A DNA stretch of 64,000 nt, taken from the NCBI GenBank assembly GCA_015056245.1, contig SVGQ01000003.1, forward strand, positions 2,689-66,688, read 5' to 3'. The position numbers were made by a program, and so were the translations under genes. This document shows positions 3,056-29,811 of the stretch, in pieces (position 1 is the stretch's first letter; the number at the start of each line of letters is the position of its first letter). The notes beneath the pieces are model-generated. The model made no database searches. It worked only from the letters and a program-made list of their open reading frames with translations, and was not told where the DNA came from. The stretch is from Clostridiales bacterium. Lineage in GTDB: Bacteria > Bacillota > Clostridia > Christensenellales > Aristaeellaceae.

Positions 3056-3058
3056 GGC

Positions 3059-10352: not shown

Positions 10353-10424
10353 TCCAATGCCTCCACACGTTTCGATAGTCATATTTTACGGAACATTTGA
10401 GTAGCACAAAAGAAGTCATAAGGG

Positions 10425-10454
10425 TTGTAATATACATACCATATGGTATATAAT
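10425..10454 (+). promoter_or_regulatory. Candidate promoter with an overlapping 14-nt palindrome in the XRE/resolvase divergent region
   Basis: TTGTAA (10425-10430), an 18-nt spacer and TATAAT (10449-10454). The perfect palindrome ATACCATATGGTAT (10436-10449) overlaps the spacer and -10, and is a plausible XRE operator. Confidence 0.4.
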
Positions 10455-10582
10455 GGGTGAATCATATGAACGGTAACAAAAGGGGACGATTCGATGAAGT
10501 AACATTTGTTGGTGTATCATATGACGATCTGGGCGCTTTCTGTAGAATATAGCGGAAATGATTATTCACAGGAGGCAAAGCG

Positions 10583-11089
10583 ATGACACACACAATGTAT
10601 GGATATGTTCGTGTATCCAGCAAGGAGCAGAATGAAACAAGGCAATTACTTGCAATGGACGAGTTTGGGGTCGATAGGAAAAATGTCTTTCTTGAAAAAC
10701 AGTCAGGTAAGGATTTCAACAGACCAGTCTATAAAGCCCTTTTACATTGCCTGAAAACAAACGATGTGTTGGTTGTGAAAAGCATTGATCGTCTTGGCAG
10801 AAACTATGACGAGATTCTTGAGCAATGGAGATTTATCACCAATATTGTTTTGCAGTTGTTATCATATGTTGCTCAAACAGAAAGAGAGTTAATTAGGCAA
10901 AGACAAGCTGAAGGGATTGCCGCAGCAAAAGCCCGTGGAGTTCACTTTGGTCCAAAGCCAATGACCCCACCTTCGCAATTTCAACAGTATCACATTCTGT
11001 GGCAAGACGGTAAAGTTTCAGCAAGGGAAGCTGCCCGACAACTTCATGTTTCGCATAAGACATTTCTGAAGTGGGTAAAAACAAAATAG
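10583..11089 (+). CDS. Small serine recombinase (resolvase/invertase family), apparently with an internal in-frame deletion (168 aa)
   Basis: GGAGG lies 7 nt upstream of ATG 10583. The catalytic N-terminus is YGYVRVSSKEQ, with SIDRLGRN, the E-helix VAQTERELIRQRQAEGIAAAKARG and a C-terminal HTH. The segment between DRLGR and AQTER is only 23 aa, versus 43 aa in my recalled Tn3 resolvase sequence. Confidence 0.8.
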   Translation: MTHTMYGYVRVSSKEQNETRQLLAMDEFGVDRKNVFLEKQSGKDFNRPVYKALLHCLKTNDVLVVKSIDRLGRNYDEILEQWRFITNIVLQLLSYVAQTERELIRQRQAEGIAAAKARGVHFGPKPMTPPSQFQQYHILWQDGKVSAREAARQLHVSHKTFLKWVKTK

Positions 11090-11322: not shown

Positions 11323-12045
11323 ATGAGATCATCGGTGCTTGCTTATCGGCTTTTGTCGCTTCTCTTAGTTATGCTGCTGTTGCCAATGAGTGCATTCGCG
11401 TATGTGTACGATGAGAATGTCAGTTACTATGAATCGTTGCCTGCGGTAGAACAATATATGAAAACAATGAAATCACCGACACAAACAATCATTGAGAGCG
11501 ATAATGTGAAAGGTGAAGATCATCGAATCAGTATCTATAAGGGGTGTCACGAAAGACTGCAGGCACTTGGATATTGTTTGTCAGACTATAACAGAAACCG
11601 GTACTATTCTGACGATTATGTAACAGCAGTCTCCATATTTGCTCAACAGATGGGACTTGGTGATTGTTTTGATGGGCAAAAAACGACACCATTCCTTCGG
11701 GCAGTGATTATGGCAGACGGGGTTGCTCAACCCGTCATTGTTGCTCCGATCAACCATCGTCTCTACTATACCAAGAATGAGAAAGTATATTCCTTGAAAG
11801 AACTTGTTCAAGCCAAACCGGCTGAGATGGTCTGCTGGAAAGGAACAGTAGCAGATGTGAAACTGCTTTCTGGAACGAAGGTGCGATATACAGTAAGCTG
11901 TGAGGATGAAACCTTCGTCGTAGAATTTGTTCATCCGACCAGAAGTTCTACTTTCCTGAAAGATGATAATGTCATTGTTTATGGCAGAGTCGTTGCTAAT
12001 GAGGATGTACAGATTTTGGCAGATATGATTGCCTATTCGAAATAA
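11323..12045 (+). CDS. Secreted protein with a possible peptidoglycan-binding-like segment (240 aa)
   Basis: The signal peptide is MRSSVLAYRLLSLLLVMLLLPMSAFA. HERLQALGYCLSDY...AVSIFAQQMGLG resembles a PG_binding_1-type repeat. The C-terminus is beta-rich. It is the first gene of the co-directional cassette. Confidence 0.7.
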   Translation: MRSSVLAYRLLSLLLVMLLLPMSAFAYVYDENVSYYESLPAVEQYMKTMKSPTQTIIESDNVKGEDHRISIYKGCHERLQALGYCLSDYNRNRYYSDDYVTAVSIFAQQMGLGDCFDGQKTTPFLRAVIMADGVAQPVIVAPINHRLYYTKNEKVYSLKELVQAKPAEMVCWKGTVADVKLLSGTKVRYTVSCEDETFVVEFVHPTRSSTFLKDDNVIVYGRVVANEDVQILADMIAYSK

Positions 12046-12081
12046 ACAAGATCAACTAATATATACCGAAAAGAGGGACTG

Positions 12082-13749
12082 ATGATGAAAAAAAGAGCAT
12101 GGTTCAGCGTAATGCTGGTTTGCTTAATCATGTTGATGTGCTCTTGTACGGCTGTACCACCAGATCAGAATCCGAGTGGTAACATCGGAGGCTTGGAAAC
12201 ACCACCCCCTACTGACATTCTTACGGATGAAGCGGAAGAAAACTCTGATTCATCTGCGTTGGTTGATAGCGTCACTCCGGCTCCTTTGGTGCCATTCACA
12301 GGCATTCATCAGGTACAGGTGTTTGTTGACGCAACGATGCCGATGATGGGTTTTGTTGATATGGAGGAGCGTTCCGATTATATCACGCTTATGGAATCCT
12401 GTCGTACTGCAGCTGCACAATGTTTTCCAAATGGGCGAGAATATGCTTATCGCATCGACATTGACCAACCAATAGAAAACGCGGGTCTTGTCAATGGACT
12501 CTCGTTGCAGGAAGCATCTTCTCCCAGCTTCTATCTCTCCTCGGATTTGACACATTATCCAGCAAAGGTATATTCCGCTCCTTCTGACTCGCACCGTTCT
12601 TCTGAACGTTTTAATGAATTCCATTTGAGTTATTACCATGCGTATGGTAAAGCGGAACCGGCAACTGACATTCAAACGCAGAATCCTGTCGCGTGGGCAA
12701 TCAATCAGATGGATCCATCTCTCGATAATATCGCCATTATTTTCAGCGATTTGTCGGAACTTCAGTTTGATTCCTCCAAACTTACCACAGCGATTCAGAC
12801 GCAAGTATTTGGACAGGGAAAGACAATCGGTATTTTGGCTATGCAAAGCAACTTTGCAGGTTTGGTACCCATGAGCAATGGCTGGTTTGTCTGGGGGTCT
12901 GAACCAACGGGTACACTTTGGAAGATGCTCGATTATACGCATTATGAGCTTGGCATCTCCATTGATCCTGAGCTTCGCCAAACAGCGCAGCGCCCGCTTT
13001 ATGTTATCTGTGTGGGCGAATCAGATGCAGTTAATCGCTTTGTAAATACACTGAACAGCCAGATGAATATCCGCTTTACCGATGAAGCAACTCAATTGAA
13101 TTTGCGGGCTTTCGATGTGGATTTCGGCACCAAGAACGTGAATATCGCAGACTCCGTCTCGTTGGCATCCAACACCCAAGAGGGCATGAATTTGGTGGAT
13201 GAGGGAGACCGATTGACAACTGTTACGCTTCAGCGTATGCGTGGTGAATACGATGAAAACGCAAATCCTCGCTACGCTATCTATGAAGTGACTTATCCAG
13301 CTAAACTCACAGATCCCCGCACGAGTTTTGGTTTTAGCCCCAGCGATTTCAACGTACAGGCTGCGATGGTCAAGTATGATAAAGGCAACATTGTTACGCC
13401 TATGGGTACTCCCACAGAAGACCAGTTGAAATGCACTGTAGTCGGTACGGAGCTGATGGGAACGGATGTAAAAGTGAGTATTCGTGTCGATTTCCCGTTC
13501 CAGAAGTTTGATCGTGGTAATTATGATGTAACGATTTCCATGATGCTGAATCCCCCCGGAGATGTTGGCGAACCATTGTGGGTATCGGATTATCATACGG
13601 ATTTCAACAGCCCCGATAGCTTTGACGGCAGTAAAACAGTAGGACTCAATGCTCTTTTCAGTCATATATCTGCTTGCCAGAAGGCTGTCATTTCTAAACA
13701 ATTCACAGCCCTGGGCGAATTCACGTTTAAGCTGAGAGTAAACGACTAA
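12082..13749 (+). CDS. Probable lipoprotein/secreted protein (555 aa); possible degenerate vWA-like core
   Basis: N-terminus MMKKRAWFSVMLVCLIMLMCSCTAVPP, a signal peptide with Cys. The strands VQVFVDATMPMMGF and NIAIIFSDLSEL recall the vWA beta1/beta4 pattern but lack a canonical DxSxS. That call is weak. Confidence 0.7.
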   Translation: MMKKRAWFSVMLVCLIMLMCSCTAVPPDQNPSGNIGGLETPPPTDILTDEAEENSDSSALVDSVTPAPLVPFTGIHQVQVFVDATMPMMGFVDMEERSDYITLMESCRTAAAQCFPNGREYAYRIDIDQPIENAGLVNGLSLQEASSPSFYLSSDLTHYPAKVYSAPSDSHRSSERFNEFHLSYYHAYGKAEPATDIQTQNPVAWAINQMDPSLDNIAIIFSDLSELQFDSSKLTTAIQTQVFGQGKTIGILAMQSNFAGLVPMSNGWFVWGSEPTGTLWKMLDYTHYELGISIDPELRQTAQRPLYVICVGESDAVNRFVNTLNSQMNIRFTDEATQLNLRAFDVDFGTKNVNIADSVSLASNTQEGMNLVDEGDRLTTVTLQRMRGEYDENANPRYAIYEVTYPAKLTDPRTSFGFSPSDFNVQAAMVKYDKGNIVTPMGTPTEDQLKCTVVGTELMGTDVKVSIRVDFPFQKFDRGNYDVTISMMLNPPGDVGEPLWVSDYHTDFNSPDSFDGSKTVGLNALFSHISACQKAVISKQFTALGEFTFKLRVND

Positions 13750-13765
13750 TGCAGGAGGAAACAAC

Positions 13766-14323
13766 ATGAATAAGGCATCTGTTATTCGTTGGGTATGGAT
13801 TGCTGCAATCTACGCAATTCTTGGAGGTATCATTTTTGCTGTAATGGGACTGTGGTTTGAGGCTATCTACATCACGCCTCCCGGTTACAGCACTGATGCT
13901 TGGCAGACCAATTTGAATATTACGTTCATGAATACATTGCTGTGCTCCTTGGGGTTGCTGCTTCTCTGGAACATCCTCTACAGCATGCCCCTTTTGGGCG
14001 GCCGCTATAAAGGTGCAAGTGTTTATGTGCTTCTGATTCTCTGGCTCCTGCTGCATATTGTTGCCAGCCTTGGTATGCTTCTGCTGACGGTACTCCCGAT
14101 TCTTGTTGCCAATCGTGCTCCCTTCTGGCTGTTCTTCCGTCTGTTGAAAGAGTGGGCCATCGCATATGGCGGCGACTTCCTGTTCCTGCATCTGTTGCCC
14201 TCTTTGTTAATCATTCCTTATTTCCTCAGCCTGACGTTGTTTAGCCCGGAAATCATCGCACCAAAATTTGCTATGTTTAATAAGTTGCGTCAGCACATTG
14301 GTTTGAAATACAGCAAGAATTGA
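13766..14323 (+). CDS. Polytopic integral membrane protein (185 aa)
   Basis: AGGAGG lies upstream of ATG 13766. There are about five hydrophobic helices and no recognised family. Confidence 0.75.
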   Translation: MNKASVIRWVWIAAIYAILGGIIFAVMGLWFEAIYITPPGYSTDAWQTNLNITFMNTLLCSLGLLLLWNILYSMPLLGGRYKGASVYVLLILWLLLHIVASLGMLLLTVLPILVANRAPFWLFFRLLKEWAIAYGGDFLFLHLLPSLLIIPYFLSLTLFSPEIIAPKFAMFNKLRQHIGLKYSKN

Positions 14324-14347
14324 TTGAATTTGTAGGGGGTTAACAAC

Positions 14348-15910
14348 ATGGCACATTTGTTTGCTTTTTTCTGTGGTGGCAGTGGCGCACGCGTTGCGGA
14401 AACATATGCCTTCTGCGCAGCAATGGGTTTGATGAGACATGATATTCCCACCCACATTTGTCTTTGTGATGCAGATCATCAGAATGGTAATGAGGCTACC
14501 GCCTTTGGCACAATTAAGAATTATGCAACTGTGCGTAATGAGATGTATCGAGATGGTCATACTCCTGCAGGAGCGGGGGATTTCTTTGGCACACCTCTCA
14601 CTGTTGGCCAATGGGCTTTGGATGGTCGTAAGGGCACATATGCTGGTCAGGCACAGTATACGCTGGATCAGTTGGGCAGCGCTGGCGATGCCGGCGTTGT
14701 AGCCAGTGCGCTTTTTACTGAAAAAGAAAGAACTCGGGACATCAAAAACTTGGGTTTCTTTGCCCACCCCAATGTGGGTAATGCCATTGTTCAGGCAGCC
14801 ATTTTATATGAGCAGGATGTGGCATCGAATCAAAACATCACCACAGAATATAAAAGAACAAAGCAATTAATTATTCAGCAACTGAATGCTGGTGACAGAG
14901 TTTACGTAGTGTTTGTTGGTTCTTTATTCGGCGGAACAGGAGCCGCTTGTATGCCGACAATTGCACAGGATTTGCGTACATCCATTCAGGACTATTGCGC
15001 ACAAAAGGGTATGCTGCAATTTGATCAAATTTTCCATATGAGTGCAGTTATGTTGCTCCCTTATTTTACTATTCCGCCCAAAGAAGATGGTGAAGAATTG
15101 GTTGATGGTGGTGTGTTTGATTCCAGCACAAAGATTGCGATGGATCACTATTTCCGCAAACACCCAAATCTTTTTGAGACGATCTACCCTATCGGCCTTC
15201 CAACGAGCTACGTCCAGCCTGGTAAAGCTGAGTATGGTGGTGAAAAGCAAAAGAATCCGTCCTCGCTGGTTGAATGGGTAGCGGCTATGGCTATCCGCGA
15301 CTTTATTATGACGCATGATGTGAGTGCTGCCATGCCCGTCCACAGTGAGCTTTGCTGTGCTTCCTTGGATGTGGATGGTGAAAACAACTATGTGCTTCGC
15401 AACAGTAGTTTTATGAGCCCTTCATTTGGTGATGCTTTCAATCGTTGGAATGAATTTGCAGCATTCTATGCGCTTTACCTGTATCCAAATATTAAGCTGG
15501 GTAATGCAAGAAAAAAGGCACCCACCAATTGGTATCGTAACTATATTATCATGGCAGCAGACAATCCAGCGATTGATCAGATGTTTACATTTGTCAAAAC
15601 ATACTATACCAGCATTGAAAATCTCCTTGGTTTAAGATTGAACGACGGTGCACAGCCCGTAAATGAGTTTGTGAATTCCGATTGTCTGGTAAAAATCAGC
15701 AGCATTCTGGAGCATCTTGGGACTGTTGAGCGTATGAGTGATCGTGATGTTCGAAATGCCTATAACGCATTAAAGCATGGGTTTGATATTCCAATAGATC
15801 GAGTGCAGCGAAATACCGTGCCTCGTGATCTGGAAAAGGCGGCTACTACGGAAAACCAAACGGCAGGTGGTCTTGGTCAGCTGCTTCAGTTCGTTGCCAA
15901 AGCGCTTTGA
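14348..15910 (+). CDS. Tubulin/FtsZ-like GTPase-fold protein (520 aa), divergent
   Basis: FFCGGSGARV (aa 7-16) is T1-like, LGFFAHPNVGNA (aa 135-146) is T3-like, and VYVVFVGSLFGGTGAAC (aa 185-201) matches the tubulin signature pattern GGGTGxG. There is no P-loop and no signal peptide. Confidence 0.75.
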   Translation: MAHLFAFFCGGSGARVAETYAFCAAMGLMRHDIPTHICLCDADHQNGNEATAFGTIKNYATVRNEMYRDGHTPAGAGDFFGTPLTVGQWALDGRKGTYAGQAQYTLDQLGSAGDAGVVASALFTEKERTRDIKNLGFFAHPNVGNAIVQAAILYEQDVASNQNITTEYKRTKQLIIQQLNAGDRVYVVFVGSLFGGTGAACMPTIAQDLRTSIQDYCAQKGMLQFDQIFHMSAVMLLPYFTIPPKEDGEELVDGGVFDSSTKIAMDHYFRKHPNLFETIYPIGLPTSYVQPGKAEYGGEKQKNPSSLVEWVAAMAIRDFIMTHDVSAAMPVHSELCCASLDVDGENNYVLRNSSFMSPSFGDAFNRWNEFAAFYALYLYPNIKLGNARKKAPTNWYRNYIIMAADNPAIDQMFTFVKTYYTSIENLLGLRLNDGAQPVNEFVNSDCLVKISSILEHLGTVERMSDRDVRNAYNALKHGFDIPIDRVQRNTVPRDLEKAATTENQTAGGLGQLLQFVAKAL

Positions 15911-15934
15911 CCTATGAACAAGGAGTGAAATCAG

Positions 15935-18900
15935 ATGGCTAAGAAAAAAGATACACAGTCTCAGTATATAACAAAATCTATGCTTCCCGAGACGAATGGT
16001 TTTATCACCTGGCCTGCAAACGTCACGAACAATACGTTCAATCATTTGGGAAATACCCATACGTTGGATACCTTGCGCAAAACTCTGCCCGGCAAGATCA
16101 CCAACGAAGCAATTATTCCCAATATGTTGATGCCTGCATATCGCTTGGAAAGCCGCATGCGCTGTAACGATCAGGCAGAAGCCCAGAGCGCTCTGCAGGA
16201 TGAACGTGTCAAAGAATGGTTGCGTGTGCTTTGCGCTGTGCTTTTCAATGATGATGATCACATGCAATGCCATGAGTTGAATCTGAAAAATGTGTTGCAT
16301 GATTCGGCTTATCCAATGATTATTCGTGTGCTTGCAAAGACGCTGATTGAAACTGGCAACAGTAATCCCACATTCAAACTTTTCAAGCAGCGTACGGGTC
16401 CCGGCCCCGATGACTTTAAGCCTGTTGCCTTTACCTATTCAGGGCTGAGAATCGGTGTGTGTCCAGTGGTGGAACTGAATCCAGACGACTTCAGCGGCGT
16501 TCAGAACGATCCGCAGGGCTGGTTAAGCTGCGACGATCCGATTGAATACTTGAAAAGACCTCAAAACGCTGCTTGTCGTGCAAGAATTGATGACTATCTG
16601 ACATATACGAATATTGGTAATGGCACACACTCCTATGAGGTATTCGAGGAAGAATACCGTATCATCTGTGATGAAATCCGTAGTCAGCTTGCGCCAGCAG
16701 ATGGTACAAAGGCAGCTTTCTTTCCGCTGCGTATCAAAGACTCTGTCAAAGGGAAGCCTCCAATCAGCTATATTCATTGGTTCACAGATTCTATTCTTTG
16801 CGTAAGCTGTGATCAAACCGGTGAAGGCGTTTTGTCCGTGCCGGACAAAGACTTCAAATGTGTACTGCCTATCAAGAGTCTTTGTATAGGCGAAGGTGGC
16901 AATATCAATGAGGTTTGTAATTCCGCATCGGTCAATGTAATGGGCGACGACCTCATTGTCAGCTTTACATATAATAATTCGTTCAATCAGCGTCGCTACA
17001 CTCCGGACAAGCAGATTTCTTGCATTGGCGATGAAAACCCGCTGGGCAGCGTTATGCTGTGGCCAAATAAGACCTGTTCGGAATGGGACCGCTATTTCTC
17101 TTATTTGAGCAACAACTGTCTTGGACGTCCTGAAATGGACTTGGATCCGTTTTCGATGGAAGTCTATGACGGAACGATCTGGCATACTCAAACGACAGGT
17201 TTCCGCAGAATGCAGCGAGAAGAAAACAACATTACACAAAACTTCGTTTTTGACTATGTCATTGAGACGAATGTTTTTCCTTCTGCTATCAGCTTGAAGA
17301 GGAGGAATGAAGAACTTGGTATGTTGGTACCCACTGTGTCTGCATTACCTCCCGTTCCCGATGGCGCAAAAGGCCAATTGGGCGTGGACTTTGGTACAAC
17401 AAACACGATTGCTTATTTCCACTCTGATAAAGTTGATCCCGAAGTTGTTGCAATAAGTGACAGCCGTAAAGTGCTTCTGCAAGATCGCTCGAAAGTCAGC
17501 GATAGCAACACGTTGCTCTCCTTCTTGTTTGCCCCTGATACGCATACTGGAAGCAATATCCCATTTAAAACCGCCGTACAGGTTTTCCCCGCTCCGCAAG
17601 CTAAGGCTTTCTTGAATGCTATTGCGCCGTTGCAGTATCGTGTGGACTTAAACGAGAATATGCGGGAGCTCTTGAGTCTGGATGACGATCTAAAGTGGCC
17701 GGATGACATGGCTGCTGCAACTAATCCGACCAATTCCGTTGCATTTTTGGAGTATGTAATGCTTCTTTGGCTGTGGGAAGTCAGAAAGAAGTATAATGTG
17801 TTGCCTAATCGGTATGTATATACTTATCCGGGCGCTATGGATGTTGGGTTTATTCAGAATCTGACAAACAGCGTACTGCAGCGCATGCCTGCGCGTTATG
17901 CTGCTGGCGGTTATTCGGTAGATTATGCTACTGAGGCTTCTGTTGTCATCAATTTCCTTGAAGATAATAGCGTGCTGGGGAAATACGCCAGTAAAGGATT
18001 GTCTTGGGTTGATAGCGAAGTTGGCTACCTGCTTATGGACATTGGTGGCGGTTCTGTCGATGTTTCCCTTTGGCAGGGATCAAAGCATAATGTAGCCCTG
18101 TGTACAGAACTATCACTTAGCGCTTTTGCTGGTAACCGAATTCAATTGGAACAGGTATACCCCGCCGGTGCCAATAGGCCACAATTGAATCTGCTGGCAG
18201 AAATAATGGGTTATTCCAAGGATCAACTTGAAAACAGCAAGAACATCAGTGACGCTGTTGCATTCTATCAATTTGCCAAGGGCGATGCCGTTCATTTGAA
18301 TGCTTTCCGCCAGCAGTGGACGGCTCACATTGATACCGTACGGCAGGGAATGGAAAATCGGGCTTACGATAGTAAGGCACCTATGCGCGGCAAGTATCGT
18401 AAGACGCTGGAGATGTACTTCCACTTTATGTTCTTCTTGAATGGGTATGTATATGGACAGGCCCTGCAAGATGGACGTTTGAAGTTGGTACCTGGTACAT
18501 TTGCCATCATGATGGGTGGTAATGGCTCCAGAATGTATGATCTGTGCGGCAGTAATTCAGCGGATTCCGAGCTGTTTGACAAGGCCAACATCCAAATGTT
18601 TGCACATGGTATGAGATATGCGGGTTATGAAGGAACACTTGCAGGAGTAGAGGTGGCTGTTGTTCCCTCTATTATGCACAAGCATGAGGTAGCTTATGGT
18701 GCCTCGAAATTTGTGCAGCCGCCGGTAAAGGCACTCCCGGTTGGGAAAGCATTTTCGCTTACTTCATTCAGCGATGAACCAGTTGCAACAAGCGCAACTC
18801 CTGCTTGGCTGAATGTCGAAGAAGCGGCAATAATCCGGCCGAAGGCAAAAGAGTTTTTCCTTCATTACCTGGACGGATTGAACAAAGTGAGAGAAAACGG

Positions 18901-19057
18901 CAGAAATTTCATGATGACGAACTTTGGTTATCAGCTTGATGAGAATTTCTTCAACAAGGCACAAGCTGTCATCCATGAAGGCTCTCTTCCTCAAGCTGCG
19001 GCTGCGATCTTCCGCACACTGCTGACCACGATTGGAAGCAGACATTTCCAAGATTGA
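15935..19057 (+). CDS. Large Hsp70/actin-fold ATPase-domain protein (1,040 aa) with a novel ~470-aa N-terminal region
   Basis: AAGGAG lies upstream of ATG 15935. VDFGTTNT (aa 484-491) is the phosphate-1 motif, LLMDIGGGSVDVS (aa 699-711) is phosphate-2, and IMMGGNGSR (aa 858-866) is the adenosine motif. They occur in the canonical order and spacing. Confidence 0.8.
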   Translation: MAKKKDTQSQYITKSMLPETNGFITWPANVTNNTFNHLGNTHTLDTLRKTLPGKITNEAIIPNMLMPAYRLESRMRCNDQAEAQSALQDERVKEWLRVLCAVLFNDDDHMQCHELNLKNVLHDSAYPMIIRVLAKTLIETGNSNPTFKLFKQRTGPGPDDFKPVAFTYSGLRIGVCPVVELNPDDFSGVQNDPQGWLSCDDPIEYLKRPQNAACRARIDDYLTYTNIGNGTHSYEVFEEEYRIICDEIRSQLAPADGTKAAFFPLRIKDSVKGKPPISYIHWFTDSILCVSCDQTGEGVLSVPDKDFKCVLPIKSLCIGEGGNINEVCNSASVNVMGDDLIVSFTYNNSFNQRRYTPDKQISCIGDENPLGSVMLWPNKTCSEWDRYFSYLSNNCLGRPEMDLDPFSMEVYDGTIWHTQTTGFRRMQREENNITQNFVFDYVIETNVFPSAISLKRRNEELGMLVPTVSALPPVPDGAKGQLGVDFGTTNTIAYFHSDKVDPEVVAISDSRKVLLQDRSKVSDSNTLLSFLFAPDTHTGSNIPFKTAVQVFPAPQAKAFLNAIAPLQYRVDLNENMRELLSLDDDLKWPDDMAAATNPTNSVAFLEYVMLLWLWEVRKKYNVLPNRYVYTYPGAMDVGFIQNLTNSVLQRMPARYAAGGYSVDYATEASVVINFLEDNSVLGKYASKGLSWVDSEVGYLLMDIGGGSVDVSLWQGSKHNVALCTELSLSAFAGNRIQLEQVYPAGANRPQLNLLAEIMGYSKDQLENSKNISDAVAFYQFAKGDAVHLNAFRQQWTAHIDTVRQGMENRAYDSKAPMRGKYRKTLEMYFHFMFFLNGYVYGQALQDGRLKLVPGTFAIMMGGNGSRMYDLCGSNSADSELFDKANIQMFAHGMRYAGYEGTLAGVEVAVVPSIMHKHEVAYGASKFVQPPVKALPVGKAFSLTSFSDEPVATSATPAWLNVEEAAIIRPKAKEFFLHYLDGLNKVRENGRNFMMTNFGYQLDENFFNKAQAVIHEGSLPQAAAAIFRTLLTTIGSRHFQD

Positions 19058-19126
19058 CGATAAGCCCTTACCATTCACAATGCAGACCCGGTTATTTCCG
19101 GGTCTGCACATATTGGAGGTGAAACC

Positions 19127-20068
19127 GTGGTGGATTTGCATTATGATGTGCCAATGGTTCTTCTGCCCGAGCAGATGATCGCAAATGGAGAAGTTTGGGA
19201 TGCCTTTCAGGAAGTCCAGATCAAGCTTGCACAACAGGGTTCATTGATTGAAACAGAGTTTTTAGATCAACAAAACGCTATTCAGACAGCCCATACGCAA
19301 GTGATGCAGGGTCTGGAGCTGCAAAATCAGCAGCTGGAGAAACAACACCTGTTCAATAAGGTCAATGTTGGCCTGTTGGGTGCTGTTTTGCTGTTTGCCA
19401 TCATTCAGGTTATCATAACTGCCATTCAGAACAGCAAGATCCGCAAGATGCGGGAAACAATCGACCGACTGGATGAAGTGAATCGTTGGTATGCCAGTTG
19501 TCAGGAACAGCAGGAGAAAGCACAGAATGCGATTTGGAATAAGCTCTGTGCTGTTGGCGACCAGACTGTCTCTACATCAAGAGCAATACATGAAGTAAAA
19601 TTGATGCTGCAAGAGCGGCCCAACCCCATTTCAGAAAAAACCGATGACCCGCCACCGACTATTCCCCAGCCTCCCAAGCCTCCGCTTCATACAGCGTTAT
19701 CTCAAATGCTGATACAGGTTGCAGCAAGTCAAAGCGAAGGCTGGGGAGCGAAGGTTGAAGCATATTTGGCAAATGAATATCACCTGAATATCGGTTACTA
19801 TCGTCGGCGTGATCCATCAGGTAACCTGTATCGGGGAGTTGTTGAATTGGTTGACGATGATAAAGCACCATTCTTTGGTGTGGCTACCGATGGTCGTTTA
19901 CTATTATTGCCAAACAAAGCCTACTTGAATGCATTGGCTATTTGTGCTGGAGAATTCTTCAATGGTTATGAAACCGCTAGTGGTGGCATTTCCAGTATGA
20001 ATTGTGCAGTATTAAACAAAGATGGGGACTTTTGGCGACTTGTCAGTCCTGGCAGTATCAATCAATAA
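19127..20068 (+). CDS. Bitopic coiled-coil membrane protein with a Pro-rich linker and a C-terminal globular domain (313 aa)
   Basis: GTG start at 19127 with GGAGG about 8 nt upstream. Gln/Glu-rich heptad-like segments flank one TM helix (VNVGLLGAVLLFAIIQVIITAI). A DDPPPTIPQPPKPP linker is followed by a ~120-aa domain of unknown family. Confidence 0.7.
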   Translation: MVDLHYDVPMVLLPEQMIANGEVWDAFQEVQIKLAQQGSLIETEFLDQQNAIQTAHTQVMQGLELQNQQLEKQHLFNKVNVGLLGAVLLFAIIQVIITAIQNSKIRKMRETIDRLDEVNRWYASCQEQQEKAQNAIWNKLCAVGDQTVSTSRAIHEVKLMLQERPNPISEKTDDPPPTIPQPPKPPLHTALSQMLIQVAASQSEGWGAKVEAYLANEYHLNIGYYRRRDPSGNLYRGVVELVDDDKAPFFGVATDGRLLLLPNKAYLNALAICAGEFFNGYETASGGISSMNCAVLNKDGDFWRLVSPGSINQ

Positions 20069-20129
20069 TACGATGGCTGGTTTGGTATGTTGTTAACTGC
20101 CATACCAGCCATTTTGTTAAGGAGTTATT

Positions 20130-21611
20130 ATGAAACGAGCAATACTGAAGTTGCTGATAGCCCTGCTACTGATTTCCTTGCTGACTTCTTGCACAATGGC
20201 TCAGCCAACAGGTATAGTGGATGACAACCTTTTAGGATTAAGGAATCAAACGCAAGAACCATATACTGGTATGTTCTCCAATCCATACGCTCCGGTTACA
20301 TCAACTCCACTTCCACAGGGGAGTCTGATGTTTGTTGATGTGGATGAAGCAAATGCGCTCAGAGCGGAACGTGAAGAAAGAAAGCATGACCCATTCCTGT
20401 TCGTTGAGATGCCTGAGCCTATTGTCATTGACAAACCGACAGATACACCTCCGCCGGTCTATGAAACGACACCCCCACCAGAAAAACCATCTACACCTAC
20501 GCCTGTGCCCAATAAAACAGAACCGTCAACGTACATTTTTGAACTTTGTGGTTCTGTCGGAACACGTTATGCCTATCAGCAATTAACGCAAAAACAAAAG
20601 GAATTATTCTCTGAGCTCTACGATGGGATTGTTGAGAATCAGGCATCCATCCAGATAAAGGGAACTTATCCTTATTCGGATTATATTCGTGTTTACCGAG
20701 CGATTAACTTCGATTGTCCAGAGCTATTCAATATCAAATGGCCCATGAAATGCTATGTATCTGCAAATTCAGTTGACGAATTTGTTTCTCGTGTTGAACC
20801 CCAATATTACATGAGCAATTCTGAGTACAAACAGCGTCTGGAAATAGTAATAGGAAAGATTAAGGGAATGTCTTCTGCGGCCAGTTTTGGTTCTACAGAT
20901 GTGGATCATGAGATCTATATACAGCGCTATCTGATTGAGAATGTTACATATGTACTTCAGGAAGACGCCCGAAGAGCAGATCGAGCGTATTTGGATGGCT
21001 ATGCCAAATGTGATGGATACTCTAATGCGACGATGTTAGCGCTTCGTTATTATGGAATCCCTTGCCTGAATATTACTGGTTGGACATATGAACAAGATGG
21101 AAAACGAGCTGATAATGCACATCAATGGAACATGGTTCAGCTCGGCGGTAATTGGTATCATCTCGATACAACTTGGAATGATCGTAATGGCAACTTCCCA
21201 TTTGTTCTTCAAACCTCTCAGAGCAAGCATGTGTATTTCTTGCCATATATGAATACTTCTGATGCACGGATGCTTCATAGAAGAACGGTTGATATGGAAA
21301 GCAATACATGGGATTTGCCAAAGGCCAACACAGAAACGTTATCATACTATAGGATGAATGGTTTGTCTGTTAGAAACACCGAGGACGCACGCAATAATTT
21401 GTCTTCACAGATTTCCAATATAGCTCAAAACGGTGGGGAATATGCGATTGCATATTTTGATAAACCCTCCGATGTCGATGCTTTTGTTTCTTCCGTTCAG
21501 TCCTTCATCAATGGTTGGAAAGGATGGAATAATGAAAGAATCAACAGATACTATTATAACTATTGGTCTGATATAGGTGTGATATATCTGTTTGATATGT
21601 CTTTCCGTTGA
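20130..21611 (+). CDS. Lipoprotein with a transglutaminase-like (Cys-His-Asp) core domain (493 aa)
   Basis: Lipobox LLTSC (Cys21) and a Pro/Thr-rich linker. The core YAKCDGYSNATMLALRYYGIPC...NAHQWNMVQLGGNWYHLDTTWND fits the transglutaminase-core triad (Cys294, His331, Asp346). Confidence 0.8.
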   Translation: MKRAILKLLIALLLISLLTSCTMAQPTGIVDDNLLGLRNQTQEPYTGMFSNPYAPVTSTPLPQGSLMFVDVDEANALRAEREERKHDPFLFVEMPEPIVIDKPTDTPPPVYETTPPPEKPSTPTPVPNKTEPSTYIFELCGSVGTRYAYQQLTQKQKELFSELYDGIVENQASIQIKGTYPYSDYIRVYRAINFDCPELFNIKWPMKCYVSANSVDEFVSRVEPQYYMSNSEYKQRLEIVIGKIKGMSSAASFGSTDVDHEIYIQRYLIENVTYVLQEDARRADRAYLDGYAKCDGYSNATMLALRYYGIPCLNITGWTYEQDGKRADNAHQWNMVQLGGNWYHLDTTWNDRNGNFPFVLQTSQSKHVYFLPYMNTSDARMLHRRTVDMESNTWDLPKANTETLSYYRMNGLSVRNTEDARNNLSSQISNIAQNGGEYAIAYFDKPSDVDAFVSSVQSFINGWKGWNNERINRYYYNYWSDIGVIYLFDMSFR

Positions 21612-21712
21612 GTATGTGGCATAGGCAAACAATGACGATTTTTGTTTGCCTATTCATAGCCATAAAAGACTCGATTGTAATTTGTGTATGGCCATTACTA
21701 GGAGGATATTTG

Positions 21713-22177
21713 ATGAAAAAGTTTCTGACGATAATCCTGATAAGTATTCTTCTCTTCTGCTTGACATCCTGTACTCCGGTTAAGCCAGGTTATGATCTGC
21801 GCCATGAACCAGCTGGTCTTGTTGGAAAATGGAAATGCAACGATATGAATCAATTGGCAGGTGTAATGTTTGATTTCGCCGATGGCTTGTCAGGACTAGA
21901 TGTGTTTGGTACTTTGGGCGATGCAGTAGATATTTCTGTAGAGTTGACATTTTTTCAAAATGGGACATACCAATTAGATATGGCAGTAATGATGCTGATT
22001 GTTGGTACAGAAACCGAAACGATGACAGGTACTTACTCTTGGCAGAATAATCAGCTTATTCTCGATGGAGAGATAGTGGACGCAACGCTGAATGGCAATA
22101 AGCTGACTCTTACCTCACACACGCCAGATAGGTATGTCGTACGACTTGAATTTGAGCGTGAGGACAGGTATATATAA
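21713..22177 (+). CDS. Small lipoprotein, lipocalin-like (154 aa)
   Basis: AGGAGG lies upstream of ATG 21713. The signal is MKKFLTIILISILLFCLTSC (lipobox LTSC). The fold is beta-rich, ending ...LILDGEIVDATLNGNKLTLTSHTPDRYVVRLEFERED. Confidence 0.75.
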   Translation: MKKFLTIILISILLFCLTSCTPVKPGYDLRHEPAGLVGKWKCNDMNQLAGVMFDFADGLSGLDVFGTLGDAVDISVELTFFQNGTYQLDMAVMMLIVGTETETMTGTYSWQNNQLILDGEIVDATLNGNKLTLTSHTPDRYVVRLEFEREDRYI

Positions 22178-22287
22178 TCGGCTTTTTTGATGGGAAGGTA
22201 GTGAATGCAGCGCTGAATGGCAATAAGTTGACTCTTACCTCCCATACGTTAGAGGGTATGTCGTATGACTTAAGTTTGACCGAGTGG
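22064..22287 (+). repeat. Direct ~100-nt duplication spanning a gene junction
   Basis: 22064-22163 and 22189-22287 align at about 80% identity in frame (DGEIVDATLNGNKLTLTSHTPDRYVVRLEF versus DGKVVNAALNGNKLTLTSHTLEGMSYDLSL). Confidence 0.8.
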
Positions 22288-23139
22288 AATATTGGGGAGG
22301 ATGCATTCGTGAAAAATAAGAATAGAATCAATCATCCTAATCAGCATCAATTATGGGATATACAATCAGGTGTGCTCTATAATTGTTATGCCTCAGCAAG
22401 TCAGTTGATATTACCCGTCGAGATTCATACCATCGCCCGAAAAGCGTTTGAAAATGCTGATGCAGAATACATCTGTGTTCCAAGGCATGTGGCGCTTAGA
22501 CCTGGTGCTTTTGAAAGTAGCAAGTTCAAAGAAATCACATTGCCAGAAGGAATCACACGAATAGAGGATCAAACCTTTTTGGGCTGTGAAAACCTATACA
22601 AAGTGAATGGCATAGACTCCTTAACCTATATAGGTCGTTTTGCATTTGCAGGCTGCAAAAAAATCACACAGTGGAAAACAAATCAAGTAATGGATATGAT
22701 AGATGAAAACGCCTTTGCTGAGAGTGGTTTGATCAATCTGCAATTAAAATGCAGATTGATCGGGAGAAAAGCATTTGCAAATTGTGTATCTTTGGAGGAA
22801 GCTGTGCTTGAAGATACAATTGTGATTGATGATGCTGCTTTTGTGAAGTGTACATCATTGAATAAACTTCAGCTTAAAGAGCCGTTGTTAAGAATTGGTG
22901 ATCACGCCTTCAGAGAATGCAAGAACTTGATCAGTGTTGTACTGCCACAGAGTTTACAGGAGTGCGGATATAAAAGCTTCGCTGATATTCAGAATTTTCA
23001 TGTAAAAGCTCCTGAATATTTGAGGATTCTCTTAGAAGATGAACATATGGTTGGTAGACCAGAAAATGATTTCAAAGATCAATATTATGAAGGTTTCCAC
23101 AGGGTTTTTGATCATTCCGCCAATATTCAGTATACATAA
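22201..23139 (+). CDS. BspA-type leucine-rich-repeat (LRR_5-like) protein; start uncertain (GTG 22201 or ATG 22258)
   Basis: Repeats are of the type IARKAFENA...ITLPEGITRIEDQTFLGCENL...LTYIGRFAFAGCKKI. There is no signal peptide. The first ~25 codons duplicate the 3' end of the preceding gene. Confidence 0.7.
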   Translation: MNAALNGNKLTLTSHTLEGMSYDLSLTEWNIGEDAFVKNKNRINHPNQHQLWDIQSGVLYNCYASASQLILPVEIHTIARKAFENADAEYICVPRHVALRPGAFESSKFKEITLPEGITRIEDQTFLGCENLYKVNGIDSLTYIGRFAFAGCKKITQWKTNQVMDMIDENAFAESGLINLQLKCRLIGRKAFANCVSLEEAVLEDTIVIDDAAFVKCTSLNKLQLKEPLLRIGDHAFRECKNLISVVLPQSLQECGYKSFADIQNFHVKAPEYLRILLEDEHMVGRPENDFKDQYYEGFHRVFDHSANIQYT

Positions 23140-23154
23140 TAAGGAGTATGAACG

Positions 23155-24231
23155 ATGAGTGAAACATATCAAATAAAGGATAATACTCTTGTTGGTTATC
23201 CTGATCATGAAAATGTCATCGTGATTCCTGATGGTATACATGCTATTGAATCCTATCTTTTCGACGATTCCTGTATCTCATATCTTGCTATGCCAGAATC
23301 AGTGAAAACGTTGGGAGTACAAACATTTTGTTGGTGCGATCGTTTGTGCATTATCGATTTTTCAAAACATATCAAGCGTCTGGAACGTGATGTATTCAAT
23401 TCGATTGCTGCGTATAGACTTAATCCTACCGAAAGCCTGGTCTATATTGGAAATGCAGCATTTCAAGGCAGTTTGTCACTCCTGTTTTTTCAATTTCCTG
23501 ATAATGTCATATTCATAGCTGATAGAGCATTCCATCATTGTGTTTCTATGCGTTATGTTACATTTGGTAATCAACTGAAATACATTGGAGAAAATGCATT
23601 TTCCAGCACTGCACTAGAGTATCTTTATCTTCCTGAAAGTCTAATTAGCATAGGGCGATATGCATTTGCGGATTGTGAAAATCTTTGTTGGGTTACACTA
23701 AAAGAAGGATTGCTGAGTATAGACGAAGCTGCTTTTCGTGGCTGTGTTTCCTTGAAATGTATAGAGATCCCCGATAGTGTGGTATCAATTTCGAAAAGAG
23801 CTTTTACTGATTGTGATTCGCTTGAAATTGTAGAGCTTCCTGAAAAGTTTAAGAATGTGAGCATGAAAGATGTTTTTCCCTTTCATACCAAAATCGTCTT
23901 TCGAAATAAAACAGGTGAAAGTAGAGTGCAAAAAGGGCGGCATACAAATGACATCAAATTGATCGAAAGCCAATTGCATGAAAACGAAAACGAGATGGTG
24001 TTTGGAACTGCCGAGTCATCTTATGCAATGGGATGCTATTATCTTTTTGTAAAACAAGATGAAAAAAAGGCAAAAGCACATATGGAGCAGGCGGCTGCAC
24101 AAGGATTTGCGAAAGCACATTATCAATTGTATTTTCTTGATAAATCTCAAAACAAAAGAGTTCATTTACTACGTGCGGCTACATTGGGATGCGAAAAAGC
24201 AGTGTATGAACTAATCAAGTTGCTTGGTTAG
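23155..24231 (+). CDS. BspA-type LRR protein with C-terminal Sel1/TPR-like repeats (358 aa)
   Basis: AAGGAG lies upstream of ATG 23155. LRR_5-like repeats are present (IGNAAFQGSLSL..., IGENAFSSTALEYLYLPESLISIGRYAFADCENL...). The tail AMGCYYLFVKQDEKKAKAHMEQAAAQGFAKAHYQLYFL is Sel1-like. Confidence 0.8.
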   Translation: MSETYQIKDNTLVGYPDHENVIVIPDGIHAIESYLFDDSCISYLAMPESVKTLGVQTFCWCDRLCIIDFSKHIKRLERDVFNSIAAYRLNPTESLVYIGNAAFQGSLSLLFFQFPDNVIFIADRAFHHCVSMRYVTFGNQLKYIGENAFSSTALEYLYLPESLISIGRYAFADCENLCWVTLKEGLLSIDEAAFRGCVSLKCIEIPDSVVSISKRAFTDCDSLEIVELPEKFKNVSMKDVFPFHTKIVFRNKTGESRVQKGRHTNDIKLIESQLHENENEMVFGTAESSYAMGCYYLFVKQDEKKAKAHMEQAAAQGFAKAHYQLYFLDKSQNKRVHLLRAATLGCEKAVYELIKLLG

Positions 24232-24299
24232 TAGTAGTTATTGAATAAGCAGCTCGTTCTTCCGATGCAGAAAGATTCGATTATCAGACACATAAAAAT

Positions 24300-24332
24300 C
24301 CCTTTAACCTGATGGGTTTAGAGGGCTTTTTA
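24300..24332 (+). terminator. Rho-independent terminator at the end of the 10-gene cassette
   Basis: CCCTTTAA (24300-24307) pairs with TTAGAGGG (24318-24325), including one G-U pair, and is followed by CTTTTTA. Confidence 0.6.
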
Positions 24333-24496
24333 TGTATCATAGGTTTATTAGGTTTTCTTTTTTGATGATGCGCATGTGGTGTATTGTCAGTTTAGCAGAT
24401 TATTCTTAGTATTCGCAACAAAGTCTTAATTTACCTTGACAAACATTCACCCGGCAGGCGCCTGAGGCCCCTGCACCCCACTCGTTATGAAGATGA

Positions 24497-29735: not shown

Positions 29736-29811
<76 letters not shown>

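Follow-up and report, generated by a model that had tools for sequence, protein, structure and literature searches.

A candidate envelope-spanning cassette pairing a tubulin-like GTPase with a predicted giant actin-fold ATPase on a clostridial genomic island

In the genome of a gut Clostridiales bacterium, ten tightly packed plus-strand ORFs (11323-24231 of the 64,000-nt stretch analysed, hereafter the window) lie on a low-GC mobile island beside recombinase genes. A preliminary description had presented them as a candidate undescribed system combining a tubulin/FtsZ-like protein, an Hsp70-like protein and envelope proteins, which raises the question of whether the ten genes belong together and what they might do. 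The ORFs and the packing with 15-101-nt gaps were reproduced (36, 16, 24, 24, 69, 61, 101, 23 and 15 nt), but GGAG/AGGGG-type ribosome-binding sites were counted at nine of the ten starts rather than at eight, the weak one belonging to the GTG start at 22201. At about 24300, where a single terminator had been placed, a strong hairpin with a U-tract was found (Table 1), and 0 of 200 shuffles folded as well. The GC content is 0.385-0.47 over ~8-25 kb compared to 0.53-0.61 on the left and 0.50-0.58 on the right, which together with the recombinase neighbours agrees with the foreign composition claimed for the island. It falls from the recombinase ORF 7652..8629, the left edge of the island, in which a catalytic resolvase domain was not found with Pfam. 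In the related locus L003 the 187-aa, HTH and resolvase genes precede the cassette in the order of the window. The flanks of the cassette differ among the window, L001 and L003.

Table 1. Features of the cassette and its upstream neighbourhood in the window.
Feature	Position	Strand	Basis or detail
Large serine recombinase, C-terminal part	7652..8629	+	Recombinase, Zn_ribbon_recom and DUF4368 matches
Syntenic upstream block of three genes	9382..11089	.	Order kept in L003
187-aa gene, part of the upstream block		-	
Xre-type HTH gene	10050-10382	-	HTH_26/HTH_3 Pfam matches
Small serine recombinase/resolvase	10583-11089	+	Resolvase Pfam match
P1, 240-aa secreted protein, lineage-specific accessory	11323..12045	+	Signal peptide ...SAFA/Y
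P2, 555-aa predicted lipoprotein, putative core component	12082..13749	+	N-terminal hydrophobic segment and Cys
P3, 185-aa small polytopic membrane protein, putative positional core component	13766..14323	+	4-5 hydrophobic segments
P4, 520-aa cytoplasmic tubulin/FtsZ-superfamily GTPase, helical C-terminal domain	14348..15910	+	AF2 fold, PF13809 of relatives
P5, 1040-aa cytoplasmic protein, predicted actin/Hsp70-superfamily (ASKHA) ATPase domain ~480-925	15935..19057	+	Family profile
P6, 313-aa bitopic membrane protein, Pro-rich linker, C-terminal globular domain	19127..20068	+	TM 82-100
P7, 493-aa transglutaminase-like lipoprotein, clade-specific	20130..21611	+	Transglut_core E 7e-12, LTSC lipobox
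P8, 154-aa small lipoprotein, clade-specific	21713..22177	+	LTSC lipobox
P9, BspA-type LRR protein without signal peptide	22201..23139	+	LRR_5 E 3e-39
P10, BspA-type LRR protein, weak C-terminal Sel1-like repeat	23155..24231	+	LRR_5 E 9e-68; Sel1 E 0.006, sub-threshold
Intrinsic terminator closing the cassette	24290..24336	+	Hairpin and U-tract, dG -20.1 kcal/mol, z -5.07, then CUUUUUAU

P4 has no hydrophobic segments. When its AF2 model (pLDDT 87.2, pTM 0.92) was compared with the PDB by Foldseek, the best 50 matches were all tubulin/FtsZ (best E 6e-5, probability 1.0) at low TM-scores of 0.19-0.33, and the best matches in BFVD were phage tubulins/PhuZ. Pfam Tubulin_2 (PF13809) scored P4 itself below threshold (E 0.059); among the 125 P4 homologues it was carried by many at 23-33% identity. 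Residues G10 G11 G13 and S192-x-F-G-G-T-G-A199 were invariant. The structural matches and the Tubulin_2 relatives upheld the tubulin/FtsZ fold, and P4 belongs to the Tubulin_2 (FtsZl1-type) group as a short form. A conserved T7-type acidic residue was not seen in the P4 family alignment, so filament formation by P4 is uncertain, and the same caveat was noted for FtsZl1 by Makarova and Koonin (PMC2875224).

The relation to FtsZl1 bears on how new the cassette is. FtsZl1/Tubulin_2 operons with MotA/OmpA were predicted to be a membrane remodelling system (Makarova and Koonin 2010, PMC2875224). Like the cassette, they encode a GTPase domain of divergent tubulin/FtsZ type in which the T4 GGTG loop is conserved, many membrane or secreted proteins and an upstream lipoprotein that is possibly vWA-like (PMC2875224). 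MotA/ExbB-like and OmpA-like genes are shared with many of the cassette relatives. A Deinococcus operon given in that paper (478 aa, 109 aa, FtsZl1, MotA, OmpA, LRR) mirrors the order of the cassette down to the terminal LRR gene. However, most FtsZl1 proteins have ~730-1,400 aa (typically 900-1,200), with a GTPase domain, a long coiled coil and a helical domain (PMC2875224), whereas P4 and its 120 listed relatives have 319-575 aa (all but two 453-575) and no coiled coil. The ~1,100-aa actin-fold partner is absent from the neighbourhoods in parts 1-3 of their table (PMC2875224), the window P4 falls below the Pfam threshold, and the cassette has neither a P-loop GTPase nor a protein kinase. Searches with PADLOC, NCBIfam and PHROGs found no named system among the ten window proteins, PADLOC models did not match the tubulin-like and actin-fold proteins of another locus, L084, the cassette proteins are annotated only as 'hypothetical' in RefSeq/GenBank, and literature searches returned no named system with this combination. 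Thus, the system is unnamed, as had been proposed, but it is best classified with the predicted FtsZl1/Tubulin_2 operons, as an undescribed variant and not as a wholly new class.

P5 also lacks hydrophobic segments, and as a single sequence it had no Pfam or PDB match. A profile search collected 362 cluster representatives, mostly of 950-1200 aa. P5 itself comprises an unassigned N-terminal region of ~470 aa, the predicted ATPase domain and a helical tail. Over 60 sequences with ~18% mean identity, the phosphate-1 motif DFGTTNT485, TEAS666, the phosphate-2 motif DIGGGSVD702 and GGNGS861 were invariant or nearly so, a set that includes an adenosine motif. The family profile matched MreB (3e-8), FtsA (1.2e-5) and actin (1e-3) in the PDB but BiP/Hsc70 at only 0.3-0.4, and no Hsp70 substrate-binding domain was seen in that comparison. 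The AF2 model was poor (pLDDT 41.6), so the fold is assigned from profile matches that cover the two phosphate motifs. As judged by these profiles, P5 is a predicted actin/Hsp70-superfamily ATPase of MreB/FtsA-like type; the earlier label 'Hsp70-like' was right for the superfamily but too specific.

Of 80 related genome loci, 59 have a P5 homologue as the next downstream gene, in the same orientation, after a P4 homologue, and they span at least six phyla (Bacteroidota, Bacillota, Cyanobacteriota, Acidobacteriota, Planctomycetota and Pseudomonadota). This arrangement also occurs in 18 of 22 IMG/VR loci and on a Picosynechococcus plasmid. Two metagenomic proteins, P0142 and P0148, are full-length P4-P5 fusions (P4 HMM E 2e-63 and 4e-74; P5 HMM E 1e-77 and 3e-82, respectively). 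A lack of co-occurrence had been named in advance as grounds for dropping the proposal, and the co-occurrence proved to be strong. The divergent pair in L004 (P4 29% and P5 23% identity) is surrounded by a weak TIR_2 protein, an FHA-ABC protein, vWA proteins and PP2C. A Selenomonadaceae/Quinella group encodes the tubulin-like protein but not P5. Chance packing of unrelated genes, or spurious folds, could be suspected from the negative or sub-threshold single-sequence searches with P4 and P5 and from the low-confidence P5 model, but this explanation is refuted by the order and adjacency kept over hundreds of loci in several phyla, the fusions, the invariant active-site motifs and the significant profile and structure matches.

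A pattern scan of 185,579 species genomes matched at least 600 stretches, and 588 of those listed were confirmed; most copies are chromosomal and some are on plasmids and viral-classified contigs. As far as sequence and topology indicate, the core across phyla is the lipoprotein P2, the polytopic P3 (by position and topology), the tubulin-like P4 and the actin-fold P5. All four core genes were present in 48 of 79 loci and a full seven-gene diderm form in 28 of 79. In L001 and L002 the seven genes 12082-22177 are retained and the LRR genes are missing, and all ten genes with the upstream HTH and resolvase genes recur in L003 only. The ten genes are thus real and packed but not one conserved unit, which comprises four genes, or seven in the close clade, with P1, P9 and P10 lineage-specific. 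The sole P1 homologue is in L003, while the L001 and L002 contigs end before its position, and P9 and P10 were found in the window and L003 only. Over its first ~105 nt, ORF 22201 is a duplicate of the 3' end of 21713 (81-82% identity), so the annotated start of P9 is doubtful.

The topology proposed earlier largely held, with a signal peptide at 11323, lipoproteins at 12082, 20130 and 21713, a polytopic protein at 13766, a bitopic one at 19127 and cytoplasmic products at 14348, 15935, 22201 and 23155. Among the domain labels, transglutaminase and LRR were confirmed; lipocalin-like had no significant match and Sel1 was sub-threshold. When the window-clade alignment of P2 was compared by hhalign with the family at position -2 (~456-aa proteins from 51 other loci), the probability was 98.1% (E 1.4e-13, residues 73-330). 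The consensus of that family is VYLExSGSMxGY and the window P2 has VFVDATMPMMGF, and the N-terminal domain of P2 may be vWA-like with a degenerate MIDAS motif. Most genome loci have a 128-194-aa protein directly upstream of the tubulin-like gene (clusters 4 and 8); proteins at this position have 2-6 hydrophobic segments, mostly 3-5, and are weakly related to P3 in sequence (hhalign 29%). P6 has homologues in L001-L003 only. It is this clade's counterpart, by position, of the non-homologous bitopic protein (cluster 3) that other loci encode at +2. By hhalign, P3, P6, P7 and P8 showed no detectable homology to their counterparts in other phyla, so the term 'same system' rests on four genes and topology.

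Gene order and topology are conserved over the loci in that the bitopic protein always comes next and is followed by a lineage-variable envelope module. In L001-L003 this module includes P7, whose Cys-His-Asp triad is intact in the window (C294, H331 and D346 motifs), and then P8, for which all family matches were weak and sub-threshold. Many diderm relatives instead have a stator pair resembling the ZorAB/MotAB proton channels (ZorA/MotA-like E 1.7e-11 and ZorB/OmpA-like E 2.8e-13 with the PADLOC models), a further clade encodes a vWA protein at this place, and in L109 the pair is accompanied by a Transglut_core gene unrelated to P7. The L109 arrangement, with DUF58 and Transglut_core directly upstream of the core, resembles MoxR-DUF58-transglutaminase (Bat-like) loci, whose Transglut_core protein, extracytoplasmic or membrane-located, is linked to proteins of the vWA-like (DUF58) kind. 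However, no MoxR AAA+ ATPase was seen beside the cassette, and P7 is a lipoprotein and not a polytopic transglutaminase.

Tubulin and actin superfamilies both supply plasmid-partition NTPases. A segregation or maintenance system of a mobile element, comparable to TubZRC or ParMRC with a filament that partitions DNA, would fit this background, the homologues on cyanobacterial plasmids and the mobile island of the window copy. It is close to refuted, since a DNA-binding adaptor gene and centromere-like repeats are both missing from the cassette, most of the conserved products (five of seven) are secreted or lie in the membrane, P4 groups with Tubulin_2 and not TubZ, most copies are chromosomal, and an integrated island needs no partition system.

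Another parallel is FtsZ-FtsA, where a tubulin-superfamily GTPase gene also adjoins an actin-superfamily ATPase gene. P5 resembles FtsA/PilM-type adaptors in its profile matches to FtsA and MreB, and the divisome likewise has bitopic partners and, as in diderm relatives, a TolQR/Pal-like stator/OmpA pair. In contrast, P5 is ~3 times the size of FtsA with the additional unassigned 470-aa N-terminal region, P4 has no recognisable FtsZ C-terminal domain or T7 loop, and the locus is accessory and mobile. One could picture a non-conflict 'mini-divisome', in which the pair would act together with wall enzymes or a Tol-Pal-like stator in local membrane/wall remodelling, vesicle formation or surface-structure assembly, the island copy being horizontally acquired. 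The parallel to the divisome and TolQR-Pal, the remodelling prediction for FtsZl1 operons with MotA/OmpA (PMC2875224) and the stable, syntenic occurrence in Hymenobacter and Flavobacteriaceae argue for it, but given the patchy distribution in the genome scan, the copies on plasmids, viral-classified contigs and a recombinase-bearing island, and the swapping of the envelope module between lineages, we consider it improbable.

A dedicated immune system against phages or other invaders, working outside-in like Zorya, deserves somewhat more weight and is still doubtful. P2, P7 and P8, or the ZorAB-like stator in diderms, would sense envelope perturbation, and the signal would trigger tubulin-like/actin-fold polymerisation as an effector or threshold switch, for example to block division or sequester the invader (abortive infection or exclusion). 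Suggestive of this are the ZorA- and ZorB-like proteins in the operons of many relatives, the small recombinase island with differing flanks in close relatives, the neighbours of the L004 pair, the plasmid and viral-classified copies, and a constant core with a variable module, a pattern typical of conflict systems. Zorya (ZorAB with ZorC-G) has the same combination as the relatives, namely a MotA-like protein that carries a long coiled-coil tail, together with a MotB/OmpA-like protein. However, ZorA/ZorB homologues are missing from the window cassette, partners of the ZorC/D/E/F/G type were not seen, and the stator likeness, with modest E-values, may be generic to 5:2 stator families of the MotAB/ExbBD/TolQR type. 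Tubulin and HSP70 homologues also occur in predicted conflict systems (Kaur, Burroughs, Iyer and Aravind 2020, PMC7159879). These DO-GTPase/GAP1-N2 systems share tubulin-superfamily, HSP70-superfamily, vWA and membrane components, occur in firmicutes and were proposed to form NTP-dependent multimeric assemblies (PMC7159879). However, they are defined by DO-GTPase/GAP1, their tubulin and HSP70 appear in different themes that do not overlap, and their HSP70 comes with GrpE/DnaJ (PMC7159879), whereas the cassette has no P-loop protein and pairs the two superfamilies obligately. The negative PADLOC results, the absence of a nuclease, NADase or other classical effector from the window cassette by Pfam, and the apparently vertical, stable inheritance in more than 30 Hymenobacter species also speak against immunity; the last is more readily expected of a housekeeping function in the envelope than of a conflict function with fast turnover.

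We favour, with a probability of about one half, that the locus is a clostridial island-borne copy of a widespread envelope-spanning cassette in which a P4-P5 assembly has an output at the envelope. P4 and P5 would form a nucleotide-driven assembly or switch at the inner face of the membrane, comparable to FtsZ with FtsA. The tethers would be P3 and the cytoplasmic end of P6, much as bitopic partners are bound by FtsA and PilM. Coupled through the membrane to P2 and the variable envelope module, the assembly would position or gate an activity at the wall or cell surface, in the window the P7 cysteine enzyme. The output is placed at the envelope because the constant parts cross the membrane and all variable parts are envelope-located. 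The island context suggests that the role would be accessory, serving in conflict or under envelope stress and not in core growth, and a defensive role may be entertained as a hypothesis only. The window copy is one variant of a widespread and never-studied pairing of a tubulin-like GTPase with a predicted giant actin-fold ATPase and with membrane and surface proteins.

The ten plus-strand reading frames of the cassette (P1–P10, table) were all found where the preliminary description had placed them. They are separated by gaps of 15–101 nt, as described, and a Shine-Dalgarno-like sequence precedes nine of the ten starts, one more than had been counted. A hairpin followed by a U-tract (-20.1 kcal/mol, z = -5.07) confirmed the terminator that closes the cassette. 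The deviating base composition of the island was also reproduced, with a GC content of 0.39–0.47 across ~8–25 kb compared to 0.53–0.61 in the left flank, which encodes RecJ, a Na+/H+ antiporter and DegV, and 0.50–0.58 in the right flank. The exact cassette proteins are annotated in GenBank as "hypothetical protein" (MBE5793254.1 and its neighbours), and the host was taken to be a monoderm Firmicute because the metagenome-assembled genome (MAG) carries the label Clostridiales bacterium.

Positions of the cassette genes and of other features in the window
Feature	Position	Strand	Description
Large serine recombinase region	6558-8629		island edge
ORF preceding the recombinase ORF	6558-7529
Large serine recombinase, C-terminal part	7652-8629		on low-GC island
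Small resolvase	10583-11089		on low-GC island
P1	from 11323	+
P2	from 12082	+	lipoprotein
P3	from 13766	+
P4	14348-15910	+	tubulin-like GTPase
P5	15935-19057	+	giant actin-fold ATPase
P6	from 19127	+	bitopic protein
P7	from 20130	+	transglutaminase-like lipoprotein
P8	21713-22177	+	small lipoprotein
P9	from 22201	+	LRR protein
P10	from 23155	+	LRR protein
Clade-level system	12082-22177	+	P2-P8
Direct duplication	22059-22164 and 22184-22288
Terminator	24290-24336		hairpin and U-tract
tRNA-Thr (GGT)	29736-29811	-
Giant surface adhesin	30155-54928	+	8,257 aa
Antisense ORF	30170-34474	-
Antisense ORF	34487-54970	-

The island also carries a small resolvase gene, an Xre-type HTH gene and, at its edge, a large serine recombinase that appears incomplete. 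The C-terminal ORF holds the Recombinase, Zn-ribbon and DUF4368 parts only, and no resolvase catalytic domain was found in the ORF that precedes it, so this region may be a decayed integrase. No convincing direct repeats that could serve as att sites were found flanking the 7–26 kb region. The tRNA-Thr gene, located between an ABC-transporter region and the giant adhesin gene, offers no obvious att site for the island since it lies ~5 kb from the right edge. Inverted repeats that could form an invertible promoter were sought near the resolvase and in the 11090–11320 intergenic region, and none was convincing; the longest arms near the resolvase were 25 nt with 72% identity and fell inside the resolvase gene itself. 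The adhesin, encoded by a single ORF, combines a signal peptide with a pAdhesive_15 domain and dozens of Cna_B/SpaA repeats, and at its C-terminus lies a sortase-type signal composed of IPLTGD, a transmembrane segment and RRRKK. The very long ORFs on the opposite strand are probably by-products of the composition of the adhesin repeats.

Searches with the single sequences of P4 and P5 gave nothing useful from the PDB or NCBIfam, and P4 scored only 13 bits against Pfam Tubulin_2 (PF13809), below the cut-off of 27. A database search returned 125 homologues of P4 of similar length, seven of them close (47–81% identity) and the rest at 23–33% identity. Many of these distant homologues carry PF13809, and the kinship of P4 with Tubulin_2 is thus transitive. 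In an alignment of 72 sequences, two loops were invariant, a T1-like GGSG at residues 10–13 and a T4-like SxFGGTGA at residues 192–199. The AlphaFold2 model of P4 (520 aa; pLDDT 87.2, pTM 0.92) consists of a GTPase domain and a helical bundle, without a long coiled coil. When the model was compared to the PDB with Foldseek, all 50 best matches were tubulin or FtsZ (best E 6e-5, probability 1.0), and in a viral structure library the top matches were phage tubulins/PhuZ. The TM-scores in the Foldseek search were low (0.19–0.33), indicating that only the GTPase core of P4 resembles tubulin/FtsZ. Together, the model, the structural matches and the invariant loops supported the tubulin/FtsZ fold that had been proposed for this protein.

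As a single sequence, P5 matched nothing in Pfam or the PDB, and this included its ~470-aa N-terminal region. A profile search across 1.84 billion representatives brought up 362 relatives; most of them are 950–1,200 aa long, and they can be aligned over residues ~350–930. Four motifs were invariant or nearly so among 60 sequences with a mean identity of ~18%: DFGTTNT485, TEAS666, DIGGGSVD702 and GGNGS861. The phosphate-1 (DxGxT), phosphate-2 (DxGGG[ST]xD) and adenosine (GGxxS) motifs of the ASKHA superfamily come in the correct order in P5, and both phosphate motifs were kept in 134 of 152 homologues, with a spacing of ~200–235 aa in those listed. An AlphaFold2 model built from a six-sequence alignment (pLDDT 41.6) was too poor to judge the fold. 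Against the PDB, the family profile matched MreB (3e-8), FtsA (1.2e-5) and an actin (1e-3), whereas BiP/Hsc70 reached only E values of 0.3–0.8. The HSP70 nucleotide-binding domain (PF00012 and Hsp70 domains in the PDB) was neither detected by Pfam nor matched significantly by the family profile, and Pfam and PDB profile searches gave no sequence match to an Hsp70 substrate-binding domain. The earlier assignment of an Hsp70 fold thus holds at the level of the superfamily but not as a specific kinship with Hsp70. Judged by profile similarity, the nearest relatives of P5 are the filament-forming and membrane-adaptor actins.

The co-occurrence of the two genes was scanned in one genome per species; at least 600 stretches matched, and 588 of those listed were confirmed. 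In 59 of the 80 best loci (56 with default filters and three more with filters off), the gene directly after the P4 homologue, on the same strand, encodes a P5 homologue. The remaining loci were mostly contig ends, or belonged to a Selenomonadaceae/Quinella group with the tubulin-like gene alone. Carriers include Hymenobacter, Flavobacteriaceae, Saprospiraceae, Selenomonadaceae and Clostridia, and also Arthrospira, Acidobacteriota, Planctomycetota and Proteobacteria. The pair was present in 18 of 22 IMG/VR loci and on Picosynechococcus plasmids, where RefSeq names every gene hypothetical, and it was retained in L004, a locus in which the identities have fallen to 29% (P4) and 23% (P5). P0142 and P0148, both from metagenomes, join P4 and P5 at full length in a single protein. 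P4 and P5 are thus obligate neighbours, or fused, and the preliminary description's own test, conserved co-occurrence, came out clearly in its favour. The system is far more widespread than the window suggests.

Several loci and one metagenomic protein deserve separate mention. In a Selenomonadaceae/Quinella subgroup (L013, L014, L018, L022, L024, L032, L045, L047, L050, L051, L065, L068, L069 and L079), a clear P4 homologue is preceded by genes for small membrane proteins, and the ~20-kb loci contain no P5 homologue. The subgroup may have a form of the system in which the actin-fold partner is missing or has been replaced. A Rhodospirillales MAG (L085) has two tandem tubulin-like/actin-fold pairs, at 2387–8013 and 10001–15107 of that locus, which points to a paralogous duplication of the core. 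The 422-aa metagenomic protein P0129 is 84% identical to P2 over the N-terminal 56% of P2, and its residues 293–420 match positions 85–212 of the P5 profile; either a deletion has fused P2 to P5 with loss of P3 and P4, or the sequence is an assembly chimera. In L071, on a contig that was binned as Janthinobacterium lividum, gene order and gene sizes are those of Hymenobacter loci (L070 and others), a likeness that extends to the upstream 410-aa and 999-aa genes and points to either misbinning or very recent transfer.

The gene order around the pair was constant: a lipoprotein or secreted protein of ~450 aa, a protein of ~136–190 aa with three to five transmembrane segments, the tubulin-like gene, the actin-fold gene and a bitopic protein (gene lengths in these comparisons are approximate, as they come from a crude longest-ORF caller). 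Predicted topologies agreed across families at equivalent positions. P2 shares homology with the lipoprotein family that occupies the upstream position in these loci (hhalign 98.1%, E 1.4e-13). When P3, P6, P7 and P8 were aligned with their positional counterparts in other loci, hhalign was negative except for a weak 29% for P3, and in terms of sequence these four are positional analogues only. Diderm lineages add two proteins, one of ~500 aa that is MotA/ExbB-like and carries a coiled-coil tail, and one of ~220 aa that is OmpA/MotB-like; the two match Pfam MotA_ExbB and OmpA as well as PADLOC ZorA (1.7e-11) and ZorB (2.8e-13). Among close relatives, L003 (P4 56% identical) has all ten genes together with upstream 187-aa, HTH and resolvase genes, and L001 and L002 (P4 81% identical) retain only P2–P8 in a different flank. 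Because of the P2 homology and the gene content of L001–L003, we define the core as the four genes P2–P5 and the clade-level system as the seven genes P2–P8. The proposed ten-gene unit was therefore reduced: P2–P5 are universal and P2–P8 are common to the close clade, but P1 and the two BspA-type LRR genes, judged by gene content, are additions particular to the lineage. A direct duplication of ~105 nt (81–82% identity), in which the 3′ end of the P8 gene recurs as the first ~30 codons of the P9 ORF, suggests that recombination left a scar at the point where the LRR genes joined the cassette, and it makes the GTG start of P9 doubtful. The envelope module varies by lineage, as the core is accompanied by a Transglut_core gene and DUF58 in L109, an unrelated locus, and by a vWA protein in L004. 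In P7, the Cys294-His331-Asp346 triad is intact. The P2 family has an ExSGSM motif that is DxSGSM-like, and one of 37 members matched VWA_CoxE weakly. Aligned with three genuine vWA proteins by hhalign, P2 gave 14 columns at a probability of 32%, covering the MIDAS-like motif only. The P2 family profile had no vWA match in the PDB, and none of the sequences that a large homology search with the P2 alignment returned, all of them close relatives, had a Pfam domain.

Among the kinds already described, the FtsZl1/Tubulin_2 operons of Makarova and Koonin (2010; PMC2875224) come closest. These operons were predicted to act in membrane remodelling, with partners of the vWA, OmpA, MotA, GTPase and kinase types. 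The Deinococcus operon given there (478 aa, 109 aa, FtsZl1, MotA, OmpA, LRR) parallels the gene order found here. However, the FtsZl1 proteins described there are mostly ~730–1,400 aa, typically 900–1,200 aa, with an N-terminal GTPase domain, an extended coiled coil and a helical C-terminal domain; P4 is shorter and lacks the coiled coil, and all except two of 120 listed P4 relatives (319–575 aa) are within 453–575 aa. An actin-fold partner is absent from the neighbourhoods in parts 1–3 of the table in that paper, and the MotA/ExbB and OmpA partners are missing from the window (Pfam) but present in many distant relatives. Likewise, PADLOC found no ZorA or ZorB of Zorya among all window proteins, whereas the related loci L084, L023 and L029 have ZorA/ZorB-like genes. 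In the DO-GTPase/GAP1-N2 systems, tubulin and HSP70 homologues are separate themes (Kaur et al. 2020, PMC7159879), and the TRAFAC P-loop GTPase of those systems has no counterpart here, as no Walker A motif or GTPase Pfam match occurs in any of the ten proteins. PADLOC and PHROGs searches of the cassette proteins were negative, and literature searches revealed no named tubulin-plus-actin, Zorya-tubulin or tubulin defence system, in agreement with the view that the combination is unnamed. The system, which combines a short Tubulin_2 protein with a giant MreB/FtsA-like one, is an undescribed variant of a kind that has been predicted computationally.

The cassette products span the envelope, and the nucleotide-site residues are invariant in both NTPases. 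By analogy with FtsZ–FtsA, P4 and P5 would build a nucleotide-dependent assembly on the cytoplasmic side of the membrane. P3 and P6 might anchor the assembly there, much as FtsA and PilM hold bitopic partners by their cytoplasmic ends. The assembly would be coupled to P2 and a variable envelope module, which in this clade would be a wall- or surface-active cysteine enzyme (P7) with a small lipoprotein, and in diderms a proton-driven stator. Since all variable parts are envelope-located, the output of the system is expected at the envelope. A partition system of the TubZRC/ParMRC type was also considered; there was no DNA-binding domain in the cassette and no repeat array in 7–26 kb, and with neither adaptor nor centromere and with most products being envelope proteins, a partition function is unlikely. 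The role may be immune, with Zorya-like outside-in signalling, as suggested by the copies on the island, on plasmids and on viral-classified contigs and by the neighbourhood of L004. Alternatively, the role may be cell-biological, in envelope remodelling, which would fit the stable inheritance in Hymenobacter and the finding of no classical effector in the window cassette. The boldest reading would be that the pair defines an unrecognised, phylum-spanning prokaryotic machine in which homologues of both eukaryotic cytoskeletal superfamilies form one obligate, sometimes fused, membrane unit. Diderms would couple this unit to a ZorAB-like proton-driven stator and monoderms to wall-active lipoproteins, and it would act as a new class of envelope-triggered immunity or membrane repair. 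This reading is tentative, and we give it a probability of roughly 0.3.

The observation holds, and the central intuition of the preliminary description proved correct. To our knowledge, outside FtsZ–FtsA no bacterial tubulin and actin homologues are known as fixed partners, and the adjacency of the pair in hundreds of genomes, with occasional fusion, predicts a direct physical partnership. The seven-gene cassette is a compact, transferable version through which the function of FtsZl1/Tubulin_2 could be approached, and related cassettes are found in cultured organisms, namely Hymenobacter, Flavobacterium and, on plasmids, Picosynechococcus strains akin to PCC 7002. The ZorAB-like stators in relatives link the system to how proton-driven stators signal to cytoplasmic partners. 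A defensive function would give bacterial immunity a mechanism based on the cytoskeleton; otherwise the system would be a new machine for envelope remodelling.
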